From a virus (lineage: Duplodnaviria > Heunggongvirae > Uroviricota > Caudoviricetes): 17,891 bases of DNA. Shown in pieces: positions 8,517-14,083 of the stretch (positions are counted from its first letter, which is position 1; each line of letters begins with the position of its first letter). The notes beneath the pieces are model-generated. The model did no database searches. It was given only the letters and a program-made list of their open reading frames with translations, and was not told the DNA's origin. The DNA lies in IMG/VR virus record IMGVR_UViG_2645727810_000023, positions 1-17,891 of that record, one strand, 5' to 3'. Both the position numbers and the translations under genes were made by a program.

Positions 8517-9376
8517 GGGCGAACCTCCTTGTCAGAACCATTCAGCCTGGAATCAACAAGTGCAGCGCCAAAAACAGCATCACCAACACGGTCGTACAGT
8601 TTGCTAGCCAGCGGAGATTCAACGGCCTTAAGCATTGGATAAAGCTGGCTTGTCCAGATTTGATGGATTTCACGCAAATGCAGGTATACGCCTCTGGCGT
8701 TTCGTGCGACAGCTGACATATCAGACGCATCGGCACCTGATAAACTCTTCTCCATCAGGTTAAAGGCGTTGATGTATGCCTCTTTGAACCGGGCAGCACG
8801 TTTACCCGTGAAACCCATAGCAAGAAATGCAAAACCGTCTCGTGTGATTTGATAGCAAGGGAGCTTGCGTGTACCGCCGTTCGGTTGATTTACCGAAATC
8901 GATGTCTCCGCAAAATTGCGGGCACAAAACTCAGGGGAACAATCCAGAGTGCGGATCTTTTTCAGCACATCGTCGTGACGCTTGGAGAAGAAGTTGGCAA
9001 CAGCCAAAGAAGTGGTAACGGCCTGGCCGTTGTCAATGGTGATTTCAGGTTGAGTGAGGGCTGGGATCGTAGCCATGATGGCAGCCTCCGTTGACAGTGA
9101 AAAACTTCCACCACCGGAAACGCCAATTTCACTGGTGGTGAACTGGACGGGGTTGGCGTAACCGGCGTCAACGGAGACCGGCGCACCTTTCGGTGCCCCC
9201 GCCCAGCCCACCATAATCTGGATGTGAGCAAATGCGGACGATAAAAAAGACGCTGGCGCGTCATACATCGCCGTTGACAATTTCAGGACGCCAATCCCGG
9301 CACCCGCTTTATAAGGTGCAGAGACAGTGTAACGTCCCGAAATTGCAGAATCAATATTTGGTCTTGAAATGATCAT
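8513..9376 (-). CDS. Rha-family (ORF6N / Bro-N-like) phage regulatory protein, with N-terminal extension or alternative internal start at 9076
   Basis: C-terminal 187 aa carry FSKRHDDVLKKIRTL...CYQITRDGFAFLAMGFTGKRAARFKEAYINAFNLME, typical of Rha/ORF6N. Internal ATG at 9076 has a GGAGG SD; the ATG at 9376 has none. The upstream 100 codons still show E. coli-like codon choice. Confidence 0.65.
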   Translation of the reverse strand: MIISRPNIDSAISGRYTVSAPYKAGAGIGVLKLSTAMYDAPASFLSSAFAHIQIMVGWAGAPKGAPVSVDAGYANPVQFTTSEIGVSGGGSFSLSTEAAIMATIPALTQPEITIDNGQAVTTSLAVANFFSKRHDDVLKKIRTLDCSPEFCARNFAETSISVNQPNGGTRKLPCYQITRDGFAFLAMGFTGKRAARFKEAYINAFNLMEKSLSGADASDMSAVARNARGVYLHLREIHQIWTSQLYPMLKAVESPLASKLYDRVGDAVFGAALVDSRLNGSDKEVRP

Positions 9377-10192: not shown

Positions 10193-10416
10193 TGTTGGTC
10201 TCCTGTGGGCTTGTCATCTTCTGTATTCGCTAGACTTGGGTGTGTATATGGAATGCTCGGATCCAGATGACAAAGAATGGCAACATCCTCCGGAACACCT
10301 CGCGTTTTCCACTTTCCAACACCTTGACTGCCACGAGGCCTTCCTTTCTTTGGGAACCTGCGACCAATAGCGGCATTGGTTTTAAATTGAATTTTTAATA
10401 TTTCATAAAGGGTCAT
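10189..10416 (-). CDS. Putative Cro-like small regulator (by position, divergent from cI)
   Basis: 75 aa, first gene of the rightward (minus-strand) operon, translationally coupled to the next gene. Motif GVGKWKTRGVPEDVA loosely resembles the SQWK..IPE motif of Cro/YdaS-type proteins. Weak. Confidence 0.45.
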   Translation of the reverse strand: MTLYEILKIQFKTNAAIGRRFPKKGRPRGSQGVGKWKTRGVPEDVAILCHLDPSIPYTHPSLANTEDDKPTGDQQ

Positions 10417-10527
10417 TCTTTAGTCTCACACCAGATACTTTGTTATCCAACGATGTTAACCACAGGAACCCAAAGTATCAAGAAATTCTGTTACTTTAGT
10501 ATCAACAGCCATGAGAGGAGAAGAAAA
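10417..10527. promoter_or_regulatory. Right operator / divergent promoter region between cro-like gene and cI
   Basis: Repeated half-site CAAAGTA/TACTTTG at 10436-10442, 10471-10477 and 10493-10499. Candidate minus-strand promoter TTGATA (10481-10476) - 17 bp - TAACAT (10458-10453). Confidence 0.5.
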
Positions 10528-11184
10528 ATGAAGTCTTTAGGTGAACGTCTCATCAACGCACGGCAAAAAGCGGGGTTAACACAAGATGCGTTGGCTAAAA
10601 AAGCTGGGGTCACCAGAGTTGCAATCAGTAAAGCCGAGCAAGGCCTTACAAAAAGTTTCAACGGTGACACCCTTTTTAAAGTTGCAGCTGCACTGCGGTG
10701 TTCACCGCAGTGGCTTCAGAACGGAGATGAAAAAGATAAGCATTGGGAAAATAATGTTAAGAGCTGCCCACAGAGAGACACAGCACACTCTTACCCTGTA
10801 ATTAACTGGGTTCAGGCAGGATTATTCGCAACTTCTGGTGATGACTACAACATGTATGATCAGGATAATTGGAGGCATTCTGTAAAATACGCTGGTGAGA
10901 GGGGGTTCTGGCTGGAAGTGCACGGAGACTCAATGACTTCGCCCGTAGGAATAACATTTCCTGAAGGAATGTCGATCCTTGTCAACCCAGATAAAGAAGT
11001 TTTTTCAGGGTGTTACGTCATCGCCAGAAAAAAATCTACCAATGAAGCAACATTCAAAAAATATATTTCTGACATGGGAAAGGCGTTTCTAAAGCCCCTT
11101 AATCCACAATATCCAATCATAGAAATGGACAATGATTGCGAAATAGTAGGTGTTGTGGTTGATGCCAGGTGGGATATTTTCTGA
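10528..11184 (+). CDS. cI: CI-type prophage repressor (N-terminal HTH, C-terminal LexA/S24 autopeptidase domain)
   Basis: MKSLGERLINARQKAGLTQDALAKKAGVTRVAISKAEQG HTH, then HGDSMTSP (catalytic Ser) and VIARKKS (Lys). GAGGAG SD before ATG at 10528; the ORF-track start at 10453 is an upstream in-frame extension. Confidence 0.9.
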   Translation: MKSLGERLINARQKAGLTQDALAKKAGVTRVAISKAEQGLTKSFNGDTLFKVAAALRCSPQWLQNGDEKDKHWENNVKSCPQRDTAHSYPVINWVQAGLFATSGDDYNMYDQDNWRHSVKYAGERGFWLEVHGDSMTSPVGITFPEGMSILVNPDKEVFSGCYVIARKKSTNEATFKKYISDMGKAFLKPLNPQYPIIEMDNDCEIVGVVVDARWDIF

Positions 11185-11287
11185 CCAGACACAAAACACA
11201 AAAAGAAACCAAAGTATCAAAAATCACTTGCCACACCTTGATACCTTAGTTACCATAAAACAAAGTTCGTAACTGAGGTATCATCTC
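11185..11287 (+). promoter_or_regulatory. Left operator / promoter region downstream of cI
   Basis: Same operator-like motif: CAAAGTATCAA at 11208-11218, inverted TTGATAC at 11238-11244, CAAAGTT at 11261-11267. Candidate promoter TTGCCA (11228-11233) - 17 bp - TACCAT (11251-11256). Confidence 0.4.
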
Positions 11288-11791
11288 ATGATCAATAAAG
11301 CTACAACTCTTGACTGTCTCGAAGAACTGAAAAACCTCGGCAGCCTCATTACACTAATAGCAAAAGCAACACCTGATGCTACGCTCTCTAGCGATATAGA
11401 GTCATGCGCAGGACTGGCATGGGATATGACAAATAGCATATCCAGAAAGCTATCGTCAGCAATGCTTTTACAGAACAAAAATTCTGCAATCAGCAACCGT
11501 CTTCGCACCCAACGCGAAGCCTGCGGCTTAACAACCGCCGAACTCGCCAGGCTGCTCGATCTCGATGAAGAAATTATCATCCAGTGGGAGAGCGGAGAGT
11601 ATGAACCAACTATCAGTATGCTTATCCCACTGGCAAATATTCTTGGCTGCGATCCGATGTGGCTGTTAACTGGTGAGGTTACTCCTCCGGAGCAACCAAA
11701 AAGTGAGGAGCAGCAACACCATGACGCATCTCAACAAGTTTGCCCCTTATCTCGCGAAGCTCTTCTGCGGAAGAACCAATACCAATGGTGA
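11288..11791 (+). CDS. HTH (XRE/Cro-C1-type) domain protein with about 60-aa N-terminal extension
   Basis: 167 aa; GAGGT SD 8 nt before ATG. Central ISNRLRTQREACGLTTAELARLLDLDEEIIIQWESGEYEPTISMLIPLANILGCDPMWLLTG is a typical XRE-family HTH. Not an Arg-rich N-like protein. Confidence 0.6.
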   Translation: MINKATTLDCLEELKNLGSLITLIAKATPDATLSSDIESCAGLAWDMTNSISRKLSSAMLLQNKNSAISNRLRTQREACGLTTAELARLLDLDEEIIIQWESGEYEPTISMLIPLANILGCDPMWLLTGEVTPPEQPKSEEQQHHDASQQVCPLSREALLRKNQYQW

Positions 11792-11919
11792 CATAATCGC
11801 CGCTTCGCCCCTCAAGGTACATGCGAACATTTTTATCAATCATTGCGGAAACAGTCTCAATATGAAAACACTTCTGAGACTCGCTATATAGCAGAACATA
11901 TAAGTCAGCTGAGGAAGCC

Positions 11920-12285
11920 ATGAAAAAGTTCGAAAACATAACTGTTCTCCATGTTGATGACTTTGATTATACAAACCCGGAACTTCTCCCGGAGGTTGTA
12001 AAGGCAATAGATGTTGCCGATATAGTGATTAGAGAAAAGAGAATTATCAAAAACAGGCTCGCATGCACTTCAGGAGCAATGACAGAAACAACCTCACAGC
12101 AAGATAATTACGAAGGCATTTGTCTGGAGCCTGATTCATTTGCGGTAAATGTTTATCATTTATTGCATGCAACACAGGTATTACATATGTCCAGTAATCA
12201 CGAAACGAAAACACTCGGCAGCGAAATTCTGAGTTTTGCATGTGAGTATGCAAAAGCTACTGCCGAAAAAGAATTAGCGCAATAA
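11920..12285 (+). CDS. Hypothetical protein
   Basis: 121 aa, GAGGAAG SD 5 nt upstream of ATG. No recognised motif. Confidence 0.55.
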   Translation: MKKFENITVLHVDDFDYTNPELLPEVVKAIDVADIVIREKRIIKNRLACTSGAMTETTSQQDNYEGICLEPDSFAVNVYHLLHATQVLHMSSNHETKTLGSEILSFACEYAKATAEKELAQ

Positions 12286-12363
12286 CAACAAATATGCCCT
12301 GAACGTTTATTGCGGTTTTATCGCCGGGGATTGTTACAACCTTAATCCACAGGAGGCTTTATT

Positions 12364-12477
12364 GTGACTTTTATAAAGAATATGGCATCACACAAGACCG
12401 CCTGCCTTATTGCACAATACGGTGAAAATTACATGCATATTGCCTGCTTATTTCTGCGTAAAGCATACGGGAGATAA
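12364..12477 (+). CDS. Possible small ORF (37 codons) with strong SD
   Basis: AGGAGG at 12351-12356, 7 nt spacer, GTG at 12364. Stop directly abuts the next gene's ATG at 12480. Below the ORF-track length cutoff. Confidence 0.3.
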   Translation: MTFIKNMASHKTACLIAQYGENYMHIACLFLRKAYGR

Positions 12478-12479
12478 TA

Positions 12480-12662
12480 ATGCATCAGAAAACAGCAGAA
12501 CACGAACAAACCAGAGTATTGCTGACCATCAAAAACGGGAAAGTAATATTCATTCGCCATGTTCATGACGATGAACTTGTAGGAATTCTTTCAACATTCC
12601 TGTTTATTGCAGAAAAGGCAGGATATGACGTTATTGCACCAGCAGATGAAGATGAGGAATAA
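12480..12662 (+). CDS. Hypothetical small acidic protein
   Basis: 60 aa, GGGAG SD 8 nt upstream. C-terminus PADEDEE. Confidence 0.5.
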   Translation: MHQKTAEHEQTRVLLTIKNGKVIFIRHVHDDELVGILSTFLFIAEKAGYDVIAPADEDEE

Positions 12663-12667
12663 ATATC

Positions 12668-13249
12668 ATGCAATACGATGAATTCCAGGCTGAAGCAACA
12701 GCCAATGGTATACGAACTGGCAGTATGACGATTGATTATCACGACGCCATACGTCGTCTGGATGCCGGAGAATTCGATACTCCTAATGTGCGAGGTTTAC
12801 GTATCCTTCAGTGTCTGGCGCAAGCCGACGAAGCAGGATTACTGGGTAAACTTCCGGTTGAGATGAAGGTTGCTCAGTGGCGATGGTTGTATGTGACGAC
12901 ATTCATCAACGAAGAAGAAGACAAGAACGGCACAATTGATATCTTGAATGAACACGGAACAACTGAACACGCCGTGGTATATAACGGGATGTATGGGTTT
13001 ATGACGATATATCCCGGCCCCATTCGATTTGCCTTACAACAGTATATTGAATGGAATTTAATTCAAAAATACGGCGAAGCTGAAGGAATGGGAAGAGCGC
13101 TGTTTCTTTATCAGAAAATGCTCACTACTTCCCCTGATAAAGGTTTCATTCTTTCAGATATGGGTCGAGAAGGGCTTGAAATCCTTCTGGATGAAATTAT
13201 TAACGAAATGAATACTCATGGCATGCAATCCGAAACAGATATTAAGTAA
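12668..13249 (+). CDS. Hypothetical protein
   Basis: 193 aa, GAGGA SD, starts 5 nt after the preceding stop. No recognised motif. Confidence 0.6.
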   Translation: MQYDEFQAEATANGIRTGSMTIDYHDAIRRLDAGEFDTPNVRGLRILQCLAQADEAGLLGKLPVEMKVAQWRWLYVTTFINEEEDKNGTIDILNEHGTTEHAVVYNGMYGFMTIYPGPIRFALQQYIEWNLIQKYGEAEGMGRALFLYQKMLTTSPDKGFILSDMGREGLEILLDEIINEMNTHGMQSETDIK

Positions 13250-13259
13250 AAGGGACCAC

Positions 13260-13508
13260 ATGACCGTTATCGAGTATATCCAGGAAAATCCAGATTGCAG
13301 TAGAGAAGATATATCCCTCGCACTTGGAAGAAGCGCAACTTCTATCAGTAATGAATTATCACGGTTATTGTGGAATGGGTTAATAGTACGAACTGGAGAA
13401 AAAAACAAAATGATTCTGTACTGCGTAAACAATCTGCCGTTTGGATACAGCAATCCCCTAAGTGTTATGTTCAACCAGTTACTTAAACAGGTAAGAAATG
13501 GCAACTGA
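13260..13508 (+). CDS. Small putative winged-helix DNA-binding protein
   Basis: 82 aa from ATG at 13260 (AAGGGA SD); the ORF-track start at 13218 overlaps the previous gene. Segment CSREDISLALGRSATSISNELSRLLWNGLIVRTGE looks wHTH-like. Confidence 0.5.
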   Translation: MTVIEYIQENPDCSREDISLALGRSATSISNELSRLLWNGLIVRTGEKNKMILYCVNNLPFGYSNPLSVMFNQLLKQVRNGN

Positions 13509-13815
13509 CTCACAACTAACCATAGAAACGGCCCTGAATGTCGGCCTGGCGCTCCTTGGTTATTTTTACATCGTGTTCTGCAGCGGACGGTGGCTGTCGC
13601 TGTTGTTCCTGAAAAAATGGAATAAACGCCGTAAGCAGGATGAACGCCAGAAGGCAATGAATGCGTTTTCCGAAGCCTTCGGAATTGACGGCATGGAACC
13701 AGGGGATCCAGCTCGCGCAATCAGCAGAGGGGGTGTAGTAATCCTTGTATATCGGAGTGAAGAGAAAAATGACGATCACAAAACAACGAGTAGAAAAAAT
13801 CATATATCGCCATGA
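13498..13815 (+). CDS. Small predicted membrane protein (one TM helix, basic juxtamembrane region)
   Basis: 105 aa; hydrophobic stretch ALNVGLALLGYFYIVFCSGRWLSLLFL followed by KKWNKRRKQDERQK. AGGTAAGAA SD. Overlaps the upstream gene by 11 nt. Confidence 0.55.
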   Translation: MATDSQLTIETALNVGLALLGYFYIVFCSGRWLSLLFLKKWNKRRKQDERQKAMNAFSEAFGIDGMEPGDPARAISRGGVVILVYRSEEKNDDHKTTSRKNHISP

Positions 13816-14083
13816 AATGGGACTGAACAGCGATGTCACTGCCGAAGAGGTTTATGACCTGGCTGTACTGGCGCTGAATTTATCAAATATCGCAAACCTG
13901 AAGCGATACGAGCTTGATATGGATGGTTGCGACTCGTGCGGTCAGGATTGTGGCGCAGATATGACTGAAGATCCTGATGGTGATTATGTCCTGTTTGATG
14001 ACGTGGTTAAGTTGTTTGAATTTGATACAACCACTCAAAAGTTAGAAATCCCGGCAAAGGAGGCTGCCAGTGAGCAAGATTGA
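13769..14083 (+). CDS. Hypothetical acidic protein
   Basis: 104 aa from ATG at 13769 (ORF-track start 13745 is TTG). Contains CDSCGQDCG. Overlaps neighbours at both ends. Confidence 0.45.
   Translation: MTITKQRVEKIIYRHEMGLNSDVTAEEVYDLAVLALNLSNIANLKRYELDMDGCDSCGQDCGADMTEDPDGDYVLFDDVVKLFEFDTTTQKLEIPAKEAASEQD

Follow-up and report, generated by a model that had tools for sequence, protein, structure and literature searches.

The question raised by the early-left end of a lambdoid Escherichia coli prophage is what a cluster of uncharacterized genes is doing immediately downstream of the repressor gene cI. The cluster occupies positions 11288 to 13249 of a 17,891-nucleotide (nt) stretch of viral DNA (IMG/VR record IMGVR_UViG_2645727810_000023; here, the window), and the original prediction for this DNA was that such a repressor-proximal slot might hold superinfection-exclusion or defense cargo. 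The reading that we favor, at about even confidence, is that the cluster is the promoter-proximal part of the CI-repressed early-left (PL) operon of a phiP27/Fels-1-like prophage and makes up a regulatory and prophage-crosstalk module, not a defense island. Its best-supported functions are regulatory, namely, a helix-turn-helix (HTH) protein at the position of N, a putative antirepressor of the FsoA type, and a winged-HTH protein. In what follows, L06 to L10 are phiP27 gene names, and three-digit numbers (L001, L007, L011, etc.) denote comparison loci. The features are as follows (aa, amino acids; SD, Shine-Dalgarno sequence).

11185-11287, plus strand: cI-to-regulator spacer with operator-like repeats, a PL-like promoter and a 15-nt inverted repeat
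11288-11791, plus strand: XRE-family regulator (phiP27 L10, phrog_4739; 167 aa), with an X domain (aa 1 to about 65), an HTH (aa 72-126) and a tail (aa 131-167)
11679-11939, minus strand: anti86 (86 aa), an overlooked gene with a full-length phrog_6104 match
11920-12285, plus strand: L08 (121 aa, phrog_5451), with a conserved N-domain (aa 1 to about 47) and a variable C-terminal X domain (aa about 57-121, phrog_4587)
12310-12355, plus strand: conserved noncoding element (TTAYGGYTTWATCRCCGGGGATTRTYRCA...) 5' of orf37
12364-12477, plus strand: orf37 (37 aa), starting with GTG behind an AGGAGG SD and stopping 2 nt ahead of L07
12480-12662, plus strand: L07 (60 aa, phrog_340), of the FsoA/GfoA/GftA small trans-acting antirepressor family
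12668-13249, plus strand: L06 (193 aa, phrog_1515), a conserved alpha/beta protein
13260-13508, plus strand: MarR-like winged-helix protein (82 aa, phrog_1687), straddling the right edge of the cluster

The window comes from a lambdoid prophage of E. coli, and the 3.5-kb segment that was tested (10400-13900) is 99.7% identical to a prophage located beside yecN/cmoA in strain MINF_1A (NZ_LR890326). The minus strand carries a cro-like gene, Rha-family genes, replication genes and Q, and the plus strand carries, in order, a LexA/S24-type cI (10528-11184), the cluster, DUF4752, ea22-like genes, xis and int; the "leftward" early operon therefore corresponds to the plus-strand DNA 3' of cI, in agreement with the earlier placement of the cluster at its start. 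The reading frames listed earlier (the HTH protein and those of 121, 37, 60 and 193 aa) were all found at their coordinates, each with an SD of the GAGG or AGGAGG type 4 to 10 nt 5' of its start, as had been claimed, but the list lacked both the 86-aa minus-strand gene and the MarR-like gene. Coding status was judged by codon alignment of the window genes with diverged loci (nonsynonymous and synonymous substitutions, dN and dS, and codon-position differences). By this measure the small reading frames are genuine, and they are labeled hypothetical or left unannotated everywhere. The G+C content, estimated only by eye in the original prediction, was computed as 42.6% for 11288-13249 compared to 53.4% for the replication genes, 48.7% for the whole window and 43.5% for cI, so that the cluster is indeed the richer in A+T.

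Judged from its sequence, L07 belongs to the FsoA family. The nearest described systems are FsoA of the Salmonella prophage Fels-1 and GfoA, GfhA and GftA of the Gifsy prophages (Lemire, Figueroa-Bossi & Bossi 2011; PMC3121763), antirepressors that serve in crosstalk between prophages and not in defense. Both L07 and FsoA match phrog_340 (E values of 3e-20 and 1e-26, respectively), and BLASTP aligned L07 with FsoA at 49% identity over a 37-aa core (E value, 7e-10). FsoA was taken to be Fels-1 STM0898.2n (78 aa) because the published primers le154 and le162 match its first and last codons exactly; these fsoA primers (PBAD-fsoA fusion and fsoA::3xFLAG) are from Table S1 of PMC3121763, and GftA of Gifsy-2 was located likewise. 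The family core reads RV.L.I.NG.V...DDE...DTF...A..AG, and GftA (73 aa) aligns over the same stretch as a weaker, partial match. In Smith-Waterman comparisons, GftA and FsoA gave a z score of 8.2, and a hidden Markov model (HMM) of the L07 family matched GftA with an E value of 3.8e-5 (single comparison; hhalign probability, 55%). The C terminus of GfoA, as read from its tagging primer (RRLGYRVTPPSDI), resembles the family ending AGY..I.PP, and the acidic tail of L07 (AGYDVIAPADEDEE) is nearer to it than to FsoA. At 60 aa, L07 is shorter than FsoA and lacks its 30-residue N-terminal leader; both are nevertheless small proteins of the same PHROG, and the dN/dS of L07 is about 0.2. Unlike FsoA, the E. 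coli members of the family are all labeled hypothetical.

The genomic setting of L07 is also that of FsoA. The fsoA gene lies in the left operon of Fels-1, a phage with a cleavable CI-like repressor (PMC3121763), and L07 lies in the operator-bearing left operon of a lambdoid prophage with an S24-peptidase CI. Given the phrog_340 and BLASTP matches to a primer-mapped FsoA, together with this operon position, we therefore placed L07 in the family and infer for it the same mechanism and an antirepressor activity. No LexA box was found near L07, in which it differs from gfoA and gftA, and the only consensus match among promoter-like sites between PL and L07 was at 12079-12108, inside L08, with site counts not above those of shuffled sequences. 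Since L07 has neither a LexA box nor another good promoter, its position is consistent with control by CI and PL. DNA damage induces FsoA, which is derepressed upon destruction of the Fels-1 repressor; FsoA inactivates the repressor of the heteroimmune prophage Gifsy-2 and is dispensable for the induction of Fels-1 (PMC3121763). By analogy, cleavage of CI after DNA damage would fire PL, L07 would be made, and L07 would bind the short, noncleavable repressors of the Gifsy/DicA type carried by coresident prophages and remove them from their operators. Induction of the coresident prophages would thereby be coupled to that of the window phage, for which L07, like FsoA, would probably be dispensable.

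A further small protein of an E. coli prophage that relieves repression by a short, noncleavable repressor is Rem of the Qin cryptic prophage, an antirepressor of DicA that its authors found by using GfoA and FsoA as queries in homology searches (PMC10448788). Its similarity to the L07 family is marginal (E value of 1.7e-4 against the family HMM in a single comparison; z scores of 0.9 against L07 and 6 against one relative), and its genomic position is different. Repressors of the short, noncleavable DicA/Gifsy type occur in most E. coli genomes (PMC3121763). If L07 works like FsoA, induction of its phage would derepress coresident prophages that have such repressors, and this would matter for how prophages are induced together and for the release of toxin phages from polylysogenic strains; L07 homologues were found in 19 records of phages converting to Shiga toxin (Stx) 1a, 2a or 2d production.

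Lambda carries host-takeover genes of the Kil, CIII and Ral kind in its PL operon, and the position of the cluster matches theirs. The cluster could accordingly be read as a set of ordinary host-takeover early genes with no role between prophages, the likeness of L07 to FsoA being one of fold only. The proteins are mostly small and without enzymatic motifs, and no role of FsoA in the induction of Fels-1 could be detected (PMC3121763), both of which would fit. We nevertheless consider this reading improbable, since L07 resembles FsoA at the level of sequence and PHROG assignment and not merely of fold and since the conserved core spans the family, GftA included, if more weakly.

The original prediction also placed an operator-bearing promoter in front of the first gene of the cluster, and the composition of the cI-regulator spacer bears this out. 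A 26-nt repeat is present both in the cro-cI region (10459-10484) and in the spacer (11198-11223), at 81% identity, and additional AGTATCA half-sites are present in the spacer. Next to these, a promoter scan predicted a sigma-70-like promoter, TTGCCA-17-TACCAT, at 11228-11256 (-35, 11228-11233; -10, 11251-11256). No terminator was predicted between cI and the regulator. The spacer further contains an inverted repeat of 15 nt (11239-11253 and 11269-11283) whose 3' arm lies over the SD of the regulator; the hairpin has a folding free energy of -20 kcal/mol (z score, -5.7), and none of 200 shuffled sequences folded as well. A strong leader hairpin within the 60 nt before the regulator start was present in six of eight immunity groups, the window included (z scores of -4.2 to -5.7), and was not found in L008 and L011. 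The sequences of these hairpins (L004 2184-2224, L006 2127-2183, L010 3027-3084, L012 and L013) are unrelated between groups, and yet the 3' arm spans the SD in five of the six groups, including that of the window; in L012 the hairpin stops 2 nt short of the SD. Because the predicted -10 element of PL is inside the 5' arm, a transcript from PL would lack that arm and RNA reading through from cI would contain the full hairpin, which on such lysogenic read-through RNA would be expected to block translation of the regulator. The leader hairpins could represent a set of palindromic operators, or they could mask the SD solely on RNA that reads through from cI.

The first gene past cI encodes, as had been proposed, an XRE-type DNA-binding protein with an N-terminal extension and not an N-like antiterminator, and no boxA was found near PL, the sole boxA-like match in the window being at 610-618 on the minus strand. 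As the first gene 3' of the left operator and promoter (OL/PL), the regulator occupies the place of lambda N and of HK022 Nun, but these are arginine-rich RNA-binding proteins and the regulator is an XRE HTH DNA-binding protein. Its HTH_3 domain covers residues 72-126 (Pfam E value, 3.7e-11), and the extension is therefore some 62 to 70 aa long; the nearest HTH matches were the DNA-binding domains of P22 C2 and the 434 repressor (E values from 3e-6, for P22 C2, to 1e-3). Both domains are constrained, with dN/dS values of 0.13 to 0.23 for X and 0.06 to 0.2 for the HTH (dN of 0.08 and dS of 1.27 in one HTH comparison). The tail, by contrast, is by its substitution pattern an unselected read-through into the antisense gene: over these last 37 residues the dN/dS of the frame is >1, and no other allele carries a homologue of the tail. 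Regulators of this family exist in double-HTH (216 to 265 aa) and single-HTH forms, and from the alignment, the single-HTH protein of the window looks like a deletion derivative, between the two HTH repeats, of the double-HTH form.

The type of X matched the type of CI one to one, both in 15 of 15 hand-curated loci (seven groups) and in 78 of 78 IMG/VR loci (four groups). The HTH next to X is 70 to 94% identical across the E. coli groups. Since X tracks the CI type and the HTH is common to the groups, the mosaic boundary of the immunity region must lie at the X/HTH junction, inside the regulator gene. Compared to CI (dN/dS of 0.03 to 0.12), X evolves faster (0.17 to 0.23) but is still under purifying selection. 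This pattern of inheritance suggests a partner for X among the products of the immunity region, and it recalls the immunity-linked specificity of N in lambdoid phages. The HTH protein would take the place of N as the first early product but would act on DNA, and the immunity region would supply its partner or specificity determinant. A mosaic boundary that separates an immunity-linked N-domain from a common HTH within one regulator gene is, like the antisense gene and the 37-aa gene described below, a new finding.

The X domain has a second copy in the C-terminal half of L08. The two were homologous in profile comparisons (hhalign probability, 96%; E value, 3.7e-9), and individual alleles reached 57% identity (BLASTP E value, 1e-18); the N terminus of the window regulator gave no BLASTP match to the window L08, so that the homology is visible only through other alleles and profiles. 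Homologues as distant as 43% identity keep the L08 frame open and without indels, and the C-half of L08 has a normal coding signature (dN/dS, about 0.2). The first 56 codons (11920-12087) are instead conserved at the nucleotide level, with dS near 0 in several comparisons and without third-position bias, possibly reflecting a dual constraint from the 5' region and promoter of the antisense gene. No L08 relatives were returned among GTDB species representatives. The type of the L08 X domain reassorts independently of both CI and the regulator, and the window-type regulator was found with three different L08 C-halves. Some relatives encode one to three extra small helical proteins, as in L009 2265-3648 (67 and 128 aa), L011 3813-4582 (74, 61 and 69 aa) and Fels-1 (L096 4070-4843). 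These belong to phrog_1478, 20558, 8959 and 6882 and are X-like by eye; BLASTP with the L009 and L011 proteins at an E value of ≤0.05 gave no link to the regulator N terminus or the L08 C-half.

An XRE HTH fused to a small helical domain that recurs in the product of an adjacent gene invites comparison with the Bacillus subtilis XRE repressor SinR and its small antagonist SinI, which have an oligomerization domain in common. In a switch of this type within the phage, L08, and perhaps other free X proteins, would heterodimerize with the regulator through X and titrate it off DNA. The homology of the regulator N terminus with the L08 C terminus, the adjacency of the genes, the ATGA overlap (and thus translational coupling) where the antisense gene is absent, and the additional X-like proteins of some relatives, for all that BLASTP did not link them, speak for it. 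On the other hand, the X types of the two proteins reassort freely, and the two X domains of the window are too diverged for BLASTP. Moreover, the window regulator carries the shared domain at its N terminus, the two copies of this domain are combined independently of one another in different phages, and no sequence similarity connects the pair with SinI or SinR. We regard such a switch as unlikely. A broader scheme, which we judge no less doubtful, would make the PL-proximal region a modular arsenal against repressors and regulators, with the hypervariable X as a protein-recognition module and with L07 and the free X copies waking or poisoning neighbors. The X of the regulator would then be tied to its own immunity type, the X of L08 could recognize repressors or regulators of heteroimmune phages, and the antisense gene would be the lysogen-state counterpart, turned off under convergent transcription from PL.

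That antisense gene, anti86, is conserved and is missed by current annotation pipelines. Its 3' end converges on and overlaps the 3' end of the regulator, and its first 20 nt overlap the start of L08 head to head. Compared to the homologue in phage ASU11 (76% nucleotide identity), dN was 0.17 and dS was 0.97, and third positions accounted for 34 of the 60 differences; stops or dN/dS values near or above 1 were found in the other frames of the region. Homologues with 59 to 97% identity occur in Escherichia, Salmonella enterica and Citrobacter freundii, and in every locus read, anti86 was situated between the HTH regulator and L08. Among the 78 IMG/VR loci, this slot held a full anti86 in 53 and a remnant of 36 to 38 codons followed by another antisense gene (phiP27 L09 or phrog_20080) in 20; it was empty in 4, and there the regulator stop and the L08 start overlap as ATGA. 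Such a strict tie to the regulator/L08 pair suggests an integrated role and not that of a free moron. The annotation of NZ_LR890326 by RefSeq/PGAP (L001 12393-14098, corresponding to window positions 11792-13497) lacks anti86, orf37 and the MarR-like gene and shortens the 121-aa gene to 68 aa.

By its position, anti86 is the sole gene of the cluster placed for expression while PL is repressed; it would be expressed while PL is silent and shut off by convergent transcription once PL fires. No site passed the threshold in promoter scans for anti86, and no LexA box was found upstream of it. A candidate promoter, TTGACA-17-CACTAT, lies on the minus strand about 100 nt upstream; it is kept in E. 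coli and Salmonella, and Citrobacter has TTGATA-17-TACGAT. The predicted fold of anti86 is confident and without a clear match to known folds, among which the GIY-YIG nuclease fold was considered. We also considered anti86 as an antirepressor of the Gifsy type and rejected this, the z score of GftA against anti86 being 0.8.

The distribution of the genes bears directly on the defense proposal. The same genes stand behind the repressor in phiP27-like (phiP27 L10 to L06), Stx-converting, Fels-1-like, Salmonella and Citrobacter prophages, and the cluster segment also occurs in phages ASU11 and PhiR49_2 and in E. coli chromosomes; DNA similar to the module was present in 904 of 5,426 complete E. 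coli genomes. In these relatives nearly all of the genes are labeled hypothetical, the exceptions being the HTH and MarR-like genes, which are annotated in generic terms as regulators. The module genes were found behind at least seven unrelated repressor types in Escherichia, Salmonella and Citrobacter, and a gene set that recurs syntenically behind unrelated repressors is therefore not a free cargo island. Farther along the operon, the Salmonella loci with the triad (regulator, anti86 and L08) carry families of the Fels-1 left operon. In Fels-1 and in Salmonella L011 and L014, the FsoA-family gene lies among p119, p130 and small helical proteins; the window differs in having L07 alone of those families, with orf37 and L06 as neighbors. 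The downstream content does vary: in 14 of the 78 IMG/VR loci, L06 and the MarR-like gene are absent, HigB/ParE-like, p119 and p130 genes are present, and orf37 and the L07-family gene are kept. In L007 (3782-4935) and L015 (2142-2933), where L06 is missing, a 119-aa protein flanks the L07-family gene, and a toxin-like protein of the HigB/ParE kind and a 130-aa protein follow it; L009 additionally has a YdcK beta-solenoid repeat protein.

If L07-L06, L08 or anti86 were expressed in the lysogen and protected it against other phages, several features would find a place: the A+T richness of the region, the mosaic downstream content with its swap in 14 of 78 loci, the alternative antisense genes in the regulator-L08 slot, the confident but unmatched folds of L06 and anti86, and the lack of a terminator after cI, by which read-through from PRM is possible. 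Repressor-proximal cargo expressed in the lysogen has a precedent in Gifsy-1 (PMC9879122; PMC12724215). Like lambda rexAB, Gifsy-1 STM14_3217-3220 (PMC9879122) and GiPD474 (PMC12724215), the cluster lies beside the repressor gene and varies between related prophages. It has no sequence similarity to them, however, and is a module kept across genera, over three genera and many immunity types, and not sporadically; its plus-strand genes stand behind an operator-bearing PL and not in the repressor transcript, and on read-through RNA the hairpin would mask the first SD. Searches of PADLOC-DB v2 gave only generic HTH or winged-HTH matches (RmrA, CapH and CasR type) and none for L08, orf37, L07 or L06, with a nonsignificant Cas11a match only for anti86 (E value, 0.03). 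Moreover, anti86, unlike a free moron, was never seen outside the triad, and L07 falls in an antirepressor family. Defense or exclusion cargo, as originally proposed, thus has no positive support in the cluster, and we hold it to be a poor prospect, with some chance left for L06, L08 and the antisense gene. Separately, the MINF_1A prophage carries, outside the part equivalent to the window (L001 934-2783), a DUF262 protein and a HEPN-like nuclease as a pair by the Q and methyltransferase genes, and this pair is a more conventional defense candidate than the cluster.

Downstream of L08, an element of about 45 nt (12310-12355) is nearly invariant in nine loci in which the flanking coding DNA is only 62 to 73% identical; it has neither an RNA structure supported by covariation nor a consensus promoter. 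The gene that follows, orf37, is under clear purifying selection (dN, 0.166 to 0.181; dS, about 2.3; codon-position differences, 9 to 10/3 to 4/17 to 20) and was present in all 78 IMG/VR loci; it matched no family in Pfam, PHROGs, PADLOC or NCBIfam. L06 (dN, 0.21; dS, 1.33) has a confident predicted fold with no match to known folds, toxin folds included, and its family comprises about 100 representative clusters across Enterobacterales, all unnamed. Five L06 copies (P0016, P0031, P0032, P0034 and P0035) are frameshifted in the C-terminal third, through either gene decay or sequencing error. The MarR-like gene matched phrog_1687 (E value, 1.3e-24) and Pfam MarR_2 (9.5e-5, below the gathering threshold), is labeled MarR family in LC567819 and has a dN/dS of 0.25 against Stx1_14040.

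With its acidic tail, L07 might be taken for a small antitoxin followed by a larger toxin, L06, in a type II toxin-antitoxin or abortive-infection pair. The spacing of the two genes is tight or an ATGA overlap, and a HigB/ParE-like toxin stands beside L07 relatives in L007 and L015. Against this, the L07 and L06 homologues are split by another gene in Salmonella and Citrobacter, Fels-1 has FsoA without L06, L06 lacks a toxin fold, and there were no matches to PADLOC or toxin-antitoxin families. We consider such a pair very improbable, and as an obligate toxin-antitoxin pair, L07-L06 was rejected on the synteny of Salmonella, Citrobacter and Fels-1.

Several points weigh against the reading of the cluster as a regulatory and crosstalk module. 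The antirepressor activity of L07 depends on family membership, that is, on 49% identity over a 37-aa core, and GftA and Rem show weak similarity to the L07 family. Physical linkage would explain the tie between X and CI equally well, the two being about 100 bp apart, and the free reassortment of the two X domains argues against an obligate X-X pairing. The candidate promoter of anti86 is confounded with the coding constraint on the most conserved codons of L08. Finally, the label covers only part of the cluster, since four proteins are without a function: no biochemical activity can be assigned to L06, orf37, the L08 N-domain or anti86, and the last three lack functionally characterized relatives. 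For L08, orf37, L07, L06 and anti86, searches of Pfam, NCBIfam and PADLOC gave no family match and PHROGs gave only families of unknown function, and sequence searches of the PDB with the uncharacterized proteins of the cluster were negative. Not all of the proteins could be assigned to ordinary early functions, the outcome that would have spoken against the original prediction: the 60-aa protein was assigned to a family, but the 193-, 121-, 37- and 86-aa proteins have no known homologues or folds, and an undescribed function may therefore still be there. L06 and anti86, being conserved and well folded but without a known fold, are reasonable experimental targets.

Rfam searches gave no match within 11288-13249. 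Elsewhere in the window, between two Rha-family genes of the rightward operon, a C4 antisense RNA (81 bits; 9131-9218, minus strand) and an isrK Hfq-binding RNA (62 bits; 9243-9319, minus strand) scored above the Rfam gathering score. This region looks like an antisense control element of the P1/N15 immI kind upstream of an antirepressor-like gene.

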